Sequence record: PQ516281
From: Escherichia phage vB_EQ1
Reading direction: 5' to 3' (one strand)
DNA length: 64,000 bases
Position 1 is the first letter of the stretch; every line of letters starts with the position of its first letter. The position numbers and the translations under genes are program-made. Below the pieces are notes generated by a model that did no database searches, was not told the origin of the DNA, and worked only from the letters and a program-made list of their open reading frames with translations. Of this stretch, positions 57,948 to 59,967 are shown piece after piece.

Positions 57948-58963
57948 TGTGTTGCCTCAATATAAAGTTCGTTGGAATATTTGACCAGCGCTTCTCTGTC
58001 TTCGTCTGAGATATCTGGAATCGCGTCAATATATTCTTTAATGATATCTTGAAGTGATTTAATCTCGATTTCCTGGTCGTCATCAGATTCAACACTGTTA
58101 TCAACTTTAGAAACCATACGAAGAGAGTGAACTACTTTTTCAAGTTCAGATTCAAACTTAGTCAACTCTGAATCAATTTCTGATACTATAACACGTACGG
58201 CTAGATTAGTATAATCAGAATAATTAATTTTGCCTTTAAACGGATAAGTGATTCGTCGATGCCATGTTGTTTCATTAGGAATAAATTCCATACGTTCAAC
58301 ATCAGTGTCAAATACCCAGAATCCGCGCGGATCGTTCTCATCACCTGCAGTAAGGGTCCATGGTGTCCCAATATATTTGACGTTAGCAGCTTCAGAGATT
58401 GTGTGGAAGTGGCCAGACCAGACTTGTTTATAAGTCTTTAAGAAATCAGGTTCAAGCCCATGAGACTTCATTCCTTTATAGAAATAAAAGCCATTCAGTT
58501 CCCAGTGACCAACACAATACGCTGCGGAAGAAGTCTTGATGTGCTCTAAGATTTCACCTGTATTTTCTTCACACATCCATGGAACGATATCAATCAGACA
58601 TCCGTCAAAATCTACAGTAGTTGGATGTTCGTAAATAGTAAAGTTTTCAAATTGAGTTAACAATTCAGAAACAGTGTTAGGTGTTATTGTATTCTTAAAC
58701 GCCATGTCGTGGTTTCCTATCGTGACATGAACGTGAATGCCTGCTTTAGAAATCATATCAACGATTTCACGATTGAATTCCATTGTACGATGTGTTATTG
58801 CTTTACGGACGTCAAACCAATCACCGTACTGAATCCAAGTTTTAATCCCGTGTTTCTTAGAGTATTCAATTGCTTGACGAATACCATCACGTTGAATATC
58901 TTGGACCCATGGGTCGTCTTGTTTGACTCCGATATGGAAGTCGCCTAAGTGCAAAATTTTCAT
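57944..58963 (-). CDS. 47: Recombination nuclease subunit gp47, Mre11/SbcD-like phosphoesterase (339 aa)
   Basis: MKILHLGDFHIGVK...GNHD...GHWE...; same length as T4 gp47. Confidence 0.95.
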   Translation of the reverse strand: MKILHLGDFHIGVKQDDPWVQDIQRDGIRQAIEYSKKHGIKTWIQYGDWFDVRKAITHRTMEFNREIVDMISKAGIHVHVTIGNHDMAFKNTITPNTVSELLTQFENFTIYEHPTTVDFDGCLIDIVPWMCEENTGEILEHIKTSSAAYCVGHWELNGFYFYKGMKSHGLEPDFLKTYKQVWSGHFHTISEAANVKYIGTPWTLTAGDENDPRGFWVFDTDVERMEFIPNETTWHRRITYPFKGKINYSDYTNLAVRVIVSEIDSELTKFESELEKVVHSLRMVSKVDNSVESDDDQEIEIKSLQDIIKEYIDAIPDISDEDREALVKYSNELYIEATQ

Positions 58964-58974
58964 ATTATTTCCTC

Positions 58975-59012
58975 ATTAGTTAATTCATTCTATCATCCGT
59001 TTATAAAGCAAA
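58975..59012 (-). promoter_or_regulatory. Middle (MotA-dependent) promoter for gene 47
   Basis: Minus strand tttGCTTtA MotA box then gatgaTAGAATgaa -10-like; same arrangement as the gene 39 promoter. Confidence 0.5.
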
Positions 59013-59014
59013 AA

Positions 59015-59034
59015 AGGAACTCCGAAGAGTTCCT
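59015..59034 (-). terminator. Intrinsic terminator aggaactc-cgaa-gagttcct
   Basis: Minus-strand RNA hairpin with UUCG loop followed by UUUUUUGCUUU. Confidence 0.6.
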
Positions 59035-59037
59035 ATC

Positions 59038-59208
59038 CACATAGTACACCGTACAGAGGCTCATTTGAACTTTTAAATCGAATGGGCTTGTACGTAATAG
59101 TTCCTTCGGCTTTAGCTTTATCATAAGACTCTTTAAAACGTCTCATTCTTTCTGCTTTGCCTTTACGGATTTTATCGAAATTTTCAGAAGTCGGGATGTT
59201 CGTCATGC
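59038..59208 (-). CDS. Hypothetical small basic protein (about 56 aa)
   Basis: Hand translation MTNIPTSENFDKIRKGKAERMRRFKESYDKAKAEGTITYKPIRFKSSNEPLYGVLCG; below ORF-track cutoff; coordinates approximate. Confidence 0.35.
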
Positions 59209-59245
59209 ATAAGCACCTCTCAGAAAATGCCTAAATCGATTTCTC

Positions 59246-59467
59246 TCATCGTTTCCACCATTTCTTAACTTGAAATGAATCAACCCATACGAGTTGTTTT
59301 GGGTCTGCCTTTACAATAGGCGGACAAATTTCTGTAATAGAACCGTCGTGATATTCCTTTTCAGAAATTTTAACACAAAGAGGACCTCCCAATTTAAGGG
59401 TGAACCCTGCATTCAGCTTAAGACGTTTAAACTTTGTTTGAACTAGCGCCATTAATGATGTCCTCAA
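59246..59467 (-). CDS. Hypothetical protein (73 aa)
   Basis: ORF in the slot where T4 has alpha-gt. Confidence 0.45.
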   Translation of the reverse strand: MRTSLMALVQTKFKRLKLNAGFTLKLGGPLCVKISEKEYHDGSITEICPPIVKADPKQLVWVDSFQVKKWWKR

Positions 59468-59750
59468 TAGCCTGACGAGTAGTAACCCACTGGATTTTAA
59501 TTAACTTGTCATTATATGGTTGTCGTAGAATATCCCGAGATTTCTTAATAGCATATTCGTAAGCTTCGAAGTTGTTTTGAATTGCTGCTTCTTGAGCATG
59601 AGCATAAAGACGGTTTAGTTCAAAACGATTCTTTTTAAGAATCTTTTCGGATTTTTTACGTGCTTCAGCTTCATTTTTCTTTTGGATTTCTTGTAGCATT
59701 TTAGCTACTGCATCTTCTGCTTCTTTATTTTCAATAATCTCGGTAGTCAT
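59427..59750 (-). CDS. Hypothetical coiled-coil protein (107 aa)
   Basis: ORF. Confidence 0.5.
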   Translation of the reverse strand: MTTEIIENKEAEDAVAKMLQEIQKKNEAEARKKSEKILKKNRFELNRLYAHAQEAAIQNNFEAYEYAIKKSRDILRQPYNDKLIKIQWVTTRQAIEDIINGASSNKV

Positions 59751-59751
59751 A

Positions 59752-59967
59752 TTATCTCATTAAATTAAAATAAAAACGTCCGTCCTCTTCAATGCAGAAC
59801 TCGTACTCAACCGGAGTCCCATTTATCGAAAATGACACGTCATGTGGGTTCAAAGGGTCGATGTCAAAATTAATTTTAAATTCACGACCCAACAGTTTTA
59901 CCAAATAAGGGATTGCTTCGTCAAAAGGTTCTTCTAAGTAGTTAGAGATGTCAATTGTCATCCTCAT
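59752..59967 (-). CDS. Hypothetical protein (71 aa from ATG 59967; track ORF extends into gene 55)
   Basis: Start trimmed to avoid 95-nt overlap with gene 55. Confidence 0.45.

Follow-up and report, generated by a model that had tools for sequence, protein, structure and literature searches.

Background

Phage T4 carries glucose on 5-hydroxymethylcytosine, and the gene for its alpha-glucosyltransferase (Agt), alpha-gt, lies between the recombination gene 47 and the late sigma factor gene 55 in the order 47, 47.1, a-gt, mobB, a-gt.2, a-gt.3, a-gt.4, a-gt.5, 55, with 3152 bp between 47 and 55. In contrast, RB69-type phages carry arabinose on 5-hydroxycytosine, in an ether linkage directly to C5 and in a chain of up to two sugars. 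Arabinose rather than glucose was demonstrated chemically in RB69 DNA (Thomas et al. 2018, PMC6024577), the modification was subsequently described as mono- or di-arabinose ether-linked to 5-hydroxycytosine with full replacement of cytosine (Lee et al. 2026, PMC13326640), and it is also found in the Mosigvirus phage NP, where the ratio of mono- to di-arabinosyl forms is 1:4 (PMC13390438). Here we report an analysis of the gene 47–gene 55 interval, and of the DNA-glycosylation genes, in a 64,000-nucleotide stretch of Escherichia phage vB_EQ1 (sequence record PQ516281), hereafter the window. We conclude that this is very probably a Mosigvirus that lacks alpha-gt and the beta-glucosyltransferase (Bgt) gene beta-gt, that has only a-gt.2 to a-gt.5 with a putative terminator and MotA-type promoter between genes 47 and 55, and that makes arabinosyl-5-hydroxycytosine instead.

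Results

The gene 47–gene 55 interval

The 987 bp between genes 47 and 55 contain four conserved open reading frames (ORFs) of 57-107 aa on the minus strand, as are all genes around the interval, and no ORF in it is big enough to encode a glycosyltransferase. The names a-gt.2, a-gt.3, a-gt.4 and a-gt.5 are those given to the four small ORFs in related records, and their order relative to genes 47 and 55 is identical in RB69. The boundary genes are also those of an RB69-like phage, with the gene 47 product 100% identical to RB69 gp47 (76% to T4 gp47) and the gene 55 product 99.5% identical to RB69 gp55 (91% to T4 gp55). The difference from T4 is confined to one junction: from the a-gt.2 stop codon to the gene 47 start there are 2283 bp in T4, occupied by mobB, a-gt and 47.1, versus 69 bp in the window, which hold a hairpin and a promoter-like site. 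Nucleotide alignment with T4 breaks at exactly this a-gt.2/47 junction, with positions 60573-59000 corresponding to the T4 block from 55 to a-gt.2 and positions 58965-57923 to T4 gene 47. Searching the window by tblastn with T4 47.1, Agt, MobB, Bgt and SegA gave no match, whereas the T4 neighbour proteins all match, and the site that holds alpha-gt in T4 is thus empty in the window. An earlier note, made from the DNA letters alone, had described this interval as free of alpha-gt and containing a MotA-box promoter, a terminator and small ORFs of about 56-107 aa. That description proved accurate in every detail: there are four small ORFs, one hairpin and one MotA-box site, and the tblastn search with T4 Agt was null.

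Search for alpha-gt and beta-gt

The two T4 glucosyltransferases, Agt (PF11440; structures 1xv5 and 1y6f) and Bgt (PF09198), have no detectable sequence homologue in the window. By tblastn the best E-values for Agt and Bgt were 1.4 and 3.5 in the 64-kb window and 0.042 and 4.9 in the complete RB69 genome (167,560 bp), while the 108 kb of the a20 genome lying outside the window span gave 0.024 at best. None of the window ORFs tested matched the AGT family PF11440, on which T4 Agt itself scores 862 bits, and neither a PF09198 member nor a relative of the T4 Bgt sequence was found in the window, where every ORF of at least 250 aa corresponds to a named RB69 gene. To judge from these sequences, this phage has neither alpha-gt nor beta-gt.

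As only 64 kb were examined directly, and T4-like genomes shift accessory genes among hyperplastic regions, an alpha-gt or beta-gt orthologue might be sought in the roughly 105 kb outside the window. We regard this as scarcely credible. Complete RB69 and the 108 kb of a20 offer at best a chance-level match to e.5 (E=0.02-0.04). Agt matches occur in 657 of 50,697 phage records, mostly T4-like coliphages (at least 90% identity) and Klebsiella phages (about 66%), with no Mosigvirus among the 40 matches listed. Moreover, a hydroxymethylcytosine glucosyltransferase would find no substrate in this phage, because its gene-42 homologue is predicted to make 5-hydroxy-deoxycytidine monophosphate (5-hydroxy-dCMP). 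The RB69 e.5 gene (25739-26341) was considered as a possible Agt relative, aligning with Agt residues 18-86 at 30% identity over 63 aa, and was rejected as a chance match because e.5 has no Pfam family and T4 carries an e.5 of its own.

Phage identity

Nucleotide identity places the window in the genus Mosigvirus, among the RB69-like T-even phages. The window aligns to RB69 positions 148747-167560 plus 1-45035, with 97.4% identity over 34463-64000 of the window, and the segment 57900-60600 shares 99% identity with Mosigvirus records (a20, NBG1, mar005P1, APCEc01 and moha). Used as a query, the same segment matched 146 phage records with at least 80% coverage at a single place, 136 of them at an identity of at least 95%.

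RB69 differs from the isolate mainly in rIIA (93% identity) and in the tail-fibre genes 34-37 at 1-10430 on the plus strand, which are 75-82% identical to RB69, with no megablast match for 6541-10430, in a window that is otherwise 95-97% identical. This pattern suggests that the tail-fibre host-range module may have been exchanged. Near the 3′ end of gene 37, which encodes the distal tail fibre, a tandem 27-nt repeat (9682-9789, plus strand) encodes His-rich units of the GxHxH type. Outside the window span, phage a20 has an annotated phospho-2-dehydro-3-deoxyheptonate aldolase gene adjoining the dCMP deaminase gene (35860-36852 of the a20 sequence compared), where RB69 has only the small ORFs cd.2 to cd.4.

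The arabinosyl-5-hydroxycytosine gene set

The RB69 arabinosylation set is complete in the window (Table 1) at 98-100% protein identity, or 97% for gene 56, and its cluster lies between uvsX and gene 43 as it does in RB69. The homologue at the gene-42 position matches PDB entries 9iqc/9ir2 (E=4.5e-162) and is only 25% identical to T4 gp42; its RB69 counterpart, gp48, has been found by experiment to make 5-hydroxy-dCMP and not 5-hydroxymethyl-dCMP (PMC13326640), the same study that proposed the phosphatase role of RB69 gp51. Directly abutting it, in the position of beta-gt in T4, is the 299-aa arabinosyltransferase candidate, a GT-B gene unrelated to beta-gt. The "missing beta-gt" of the earlier note therefore stands insofar as there is no Bgt homologue, but the slot itself is taken by a 299-aa GT-B glycosyltransferase.

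A profile of 46 homologues found no solved structure for the 299-aa protein by sequence, leaving the fold comparison as the informative one. For the 366-aa candidate, 362 of the 366 residues are those of a solved structure, 9iqz/9ir0, entitled "phage HY126 glycosyltransferase with UDP" (uridine diphosphate). Neither candidate matches any Pfam glycosyltransferase family. Both have the GT-B fold, which is common to many families and insufficient for membership of the Agt family. Of the alpha-gt or beta-gt homologues that the earlier note proposed to look for, the window thus offers a resemblance in fold only and not in family. Together, the two GT-B arabinosyltransferase candidates and the sugar-nucleotide module (isomerase, phosphatase, kinase/nucleotidyltransferase) are the components of an RB69-type pathway.

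The 299-aa and 561-aa ORFs are each intact in the window, and both are split in the RB69 GenBank record (p046/p047 and p052/p053). They agree independently with the published view that the RB69 splits are sequencing errors, RB69 gp52:53 having already been corrected to a single 561-aa ORF (PMC6024577). Just upstream of the 561-aa gene is a MotA-box promoter-like match (48782-48806, minus strand), which, if functional, would have the arabinose-donor genes transcribed in the middle mode.

Table 1. Positions of the interval genes, regulatory sites and arabinosylation genes in the window
Feature	Position	Strand	Details
Gene 47, SbcD/Mre11-like recombination nuclease subunit	57944-58963	-	339 aa; Metallophos Pfam match; right-hand interval boundary
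MotA-box middle-promoter-like site TGCTTTA-N11-TAGAAT	59010-58987	-	Pattern match; 24 nt upstream of gene 47 start codon
Intrinsic-terminator-like hairpin AGGAACTC-TTCG-GAGTTCCT, then TTTTT	59034-59015	-	8-bp stem, TTCG loop; directly past a-gt.2 stop codon
a-gt.2 homologue, function unknown	59033-59206	-	57 aa; DUF5486 E=4.5e-28; phrog_2140; 76% to T4 a-gt.2
a-gt.3 homologue, function unknown	59246-59452	-	68 aa; phrog_1648 E=1.6e-34; 100% to RB69 a-gt.3; 71% to T4
a-gt.4 homologue, function unknown	59427-59750	-	107 aa; DUF2654 E=1e-27; 58% to T4 a-gt.4
a-gt.5 homologue, function unknown	59752-59961	-	69 aa; DUF5491 E=1.4e-12; 47% to T4 a-gt.5; overlaps gene 55 3′ end
Gene 55, late sigma factor	59951-60508	-	185 aa; left-hand interval boundary
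Candidate arabinosyltransferase 2 (RB69 ORF003c/gp3)	21651-22751	-	366 aa; between rIIA.1 and gene 39; 99.2% to RB69p003
Gene 56, deoxycytidine triphosphatase (dCTPase)	34426-34947	-	97% to RB69 gp56; dUTPase_2 Pfam match; removes dCTP so only modified dCTP enters DNA
Thymidylate-kinase-like nucleotide kinase (RB69 gp45)	43021-43569	-	98.9% to RB69p045; phrog_761 thymidylate kinase
Candidate arabinosyltransferase 1 (RB69 gp46:47)	43571-44470	-	299 aa; 98-99% to RB69; GT-B fold by model
Thymidylate-synthase-like 5-hydroxy-dCMP synthase, gene-42 position	44470-45186	-	100% to RB69 gp48
Peptidase-U32-like protein (RB69 gp50) in arabinosylation cluster	45464-46624	-	Peptidase_U32 E=7e-11; 99.2% to RB69p050
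Candidate small phosphatase (RB69 gp51)	46682-47068	-	98.4% to RB69p051; no Pfam match
Bifunctional sugar-1-phosphate nucleotidyltransferase and kinase (RB69 gp52:53)	47068-48753	-	Intact 561-aa ORF; NTP_transferase E=8.8e-10; weak kinase-family matches; 99% to RB69p052 and p053
Arabinose-5-phosphate-isomerase-like SIS-domain protein (RB69 gp55)	48935-49570	-	SIS domain E=5.7e-10; 99.5% to RB69p055

A repeated hairpin and MotA-box module

The terminator-like hairpin before gene 47 has a predicted RNA folding energy of -14.5 kcal/mol (z = -2.2), and its T run leads into the MotA-box pattern, which occurs nine times in the window against 1.8 matches expected by chance. Together they form a module consisting of a stop codon, the TTCG hairpin, the T run, TTGCTTTA, 11-12 nt and TAnAAT. 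At the 47–55 locus there is one copy in the window and one in RB69, at the same junction. T4 has two, at the a-gt.2/mobB and a-gt/47.1 junctions (18672-18750 and 16575-16640 of the T4 sequence compared), as does the Klebsiella phage Mineola, at the a-gt.2/a-gt and a-gt/47 junctions (2418-2506 and 3688-3775 of the Mineola sequence compared). These six copies, drawn from four phages, can be aligned and have a common architecture, conserved in RB69, T4 and Mineola: the stems vary from copy to copy (GGAACTC, GGAGC, GGGC, GGGCC), with pairing kept and the TTCG loop constant. Mineola, a Jiaodavirus, resembles the window in having the a-gt.5 to a-gt.2 block and the module before gene 47, and differs in having an alpha-gt, 66% identical to T4 Agt, between its two module copies, without mobB or 47.1. 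Where alpha-gt is present, in T4 and Mineola, it is thus bracketed by two copies of the module, and the window represents the single-copy, empty state.

Only one further minus-strand module occurs in the window, upstream of gene 39 (24634-24672), with a downstream half, CGGATGATAGAAT, that matches the one before gene 47 exactly. The window was also searched for modules flanking the arabinosyltransferase or arabinose genes, and none was found there. With the one further minus-strand copy sited upstream of gene 39, we do not extend the cassette idea to the arabinose genes in general.

The module recalls the promoter/stem-loop (PeSL) cassettes described in T4-type phages (Arbiol et al. 2010, PMC2839356; Comeau et al. 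2014, PMC4122927) in that it combines a short conserved stem-loop with a putative promoter and is repeated at the borders of a variable gene, alpha-gt in T4 and Mineola. PeSLs as described use early promoters, whereas the module, with its two minus-strand copies in the window, has a MotA-box middle-promoter pattern, and by analogy it may be a middle-mode counterpart of the PeSL cassette logic. The window also contains families of 55-60 nt direct repeats (13907-13961, 14228-14282, 16799-16858, 17311-17370, 25959-26018, 37940-37999 and others), which on the minus strand carry T4-type early promoters (GTTTAC ... TATAAT) with adjacent palindromes and resemble PeSL regulatory cassettes.

Discussion

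Lack of alpha-gt and beta-gt is the ordinary, already published state of RB69-like phages: their lack in RB69 was noted with the genome sequence and was explained chemically in 2018 and 2026, and nothing reported here changes that understanding. The contrast between two module copies bracketing alpha-gt and the single copy seen here is a minor addition. The earlier note's prediction that T4-style glucosylation of the DNA is lacking in this phage is supported by the absence of Agt and Bgt from the window, RB69 and the remainder of a20, and by the arabinosylation of RB69 DNA (PMC6024577). Its reasoning stopped at that absence, and what it left out is that the DNA would still be hypermodified by glycosylation. 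On this reading, the absence of alpha-gt and beta-gt would reflect the use of another kind of cytosine hypermodification.

By analogy with RB69, the pathway would begin with gp56 clearing dCTP, after which the thymidylate-synthase homologue in the gene-42 slot would yield 5-hydroxy-dCMP, not 5-hydroxymethyl-dCMP. Kinases would then take 5-hydroxy-dCMP to the triphosphate for incorporation by the polymerase. Meanwhile, a five-gene sugar module (isomerase, phosphatase, kinase/nucleotidyltransferase and U32-like protein) would make a nucleoside-diphosphate-arabinose donor, from which the two GT-B glycosyltransferases, one in the beta-gt slot and the other by rIIA, would attach the first and second arabinose. 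PMC13326640 put forward the order of the two transferases and the nature of the donor as proposals; here too, we infer which transferase would add which arabinose, and from what donor. At the 47–55 locus, transcription of a-gt.2 to a-gt.5 would end at the hairpin, and the MotA-type middle promoter would restart it into genes 47 and 46.

Had the phage instead lost its glycosyltransferases, it would have a modified cytosine left unglycosylated, or ordinary cytosine DNA. Such a state would be in keeping with the lack of any sequence homologue of T4 Agt or Bgt and with the failure of both candidates to match a Pfam glycosyltransferase family, but it is hard to reconcile with two confident, intact GT-B glycosyltransferases and a complete sugar-nucleotide module in the same window. 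Furthermore, mass spectrometry and nuclear magnetic resonance have identified mono- and di-arabinosylated cytosine in the DNA of RB69 and Mosigvirus NP. The window also contains gene 56 and denB, and RB69 keeps alc and denA, all of which imply that canonical deoxycytidine is excluded from the DNA. We consider unglycosylated DNA highly improbable, and the gene content indicates that the DNA of this isolate is almost certainly glycosylated.

Several points weigh against arabinosyl-5-hydroxycytosine as the modification in this phage, or against parts of our account of it. The DNA chemistry is that of RB69 and its relatives, and its extension to an isolate known here from its genes is by analogy. 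The two RB69 arabinosyltransferases are candidates whose roles were assigned by inference, and the individual transferases of a related phage, DLP3, were inactive on 5-hydroxycytosine DNA (PMC13326640), so that the first arabinosylation could take place at the nucleotide level. The absence of alpha-gt and beta-gt beyond the 64-kb window is extrapolated from two close relatives, RB69 and a20. Finally, the promoter and terminator before gene 47 are consensus matches, and we infer their function from these. Given the complete gene set, its near identity to that of RB69 and the chemistry established for RB69 and NP, arabinosyl-5-hydroxycytosine nevertheless remains our strongly preferred reading.

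The repeated module raises the question of how the empty site arose. Conceivably, an ancestral mobB/a-gt/47.1 segment was deleted in Mosigvirus by recombination between the flanking modules, in which case alpha-gt would not be a later insertion in the T4 lineage. Two modules bracket alpha-gt in T4 and Mineola, and exactly one is present at the same junction in the window and RB69, as such a deletion would leave it; repeat-mediated loss and gain are, in addition, documented for PeSL cassettes (PMC2839356, PMC4122927). Against a deletion, the single Mosigvirus module has no obvious chimeric junction, and other genera also lack alpha-gt at this locus. Nothing but two to four small ORFs separates gene 55 from gene 47 in Kanagawavirus PEi20, Lazarusvirus DP45 and Krischvirus MIZ6. 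Among cyanophage, Salmonella, Stenotrophomonas and Vibrio relatives there are several whose match to gene 47 extends into an annotated late-sigma-factor gene, so that 47 and 55 appear to be adjacent in these distant phages. The empty 47/a-gt.2 site is therefore not unusual; it is T4 and the Jiaodaviruses of Klebsiella that stand apart. Since Kanagawavirus, Lazarusvirus and Krischvirus lack alpha-gt and 47 and 55 appear to adjoin in more distant relatives, it is more parsimonious that the Tequatrovirus and Jiaodavirus lineages acquired alpha-gt, and we think a deletion origin unlikely.

A broader idea, which we put forward tentatively and think somewhat doubtful, is that alpha-gt is a mobile cassette bounded by the repeated TTCG-hairpin and MotA-promoter module of ∼45-60 bp, and that recombination between modules drove its gain and loss in T-even lineages. 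No recombinant junction was seen among the module copies compared. If the idea is true, the 47/a-gt.2 junction would be a defined swap site for DNA-modification genes, with the window as an empty site.

On a practical level, annotating this genome by reference to T4 would lead to the mistaken view that the phage has glucosyl-hydroxymethylcytosine or unglycosylated DNA. How sensitive phage DNA is to restriction enzymes, to type IV systems such as GmrSD/BrxU, to DNA glycosylases and to CRISPR-Cas depends on the type of modification, as does its behaviour during sequencing and cloning.

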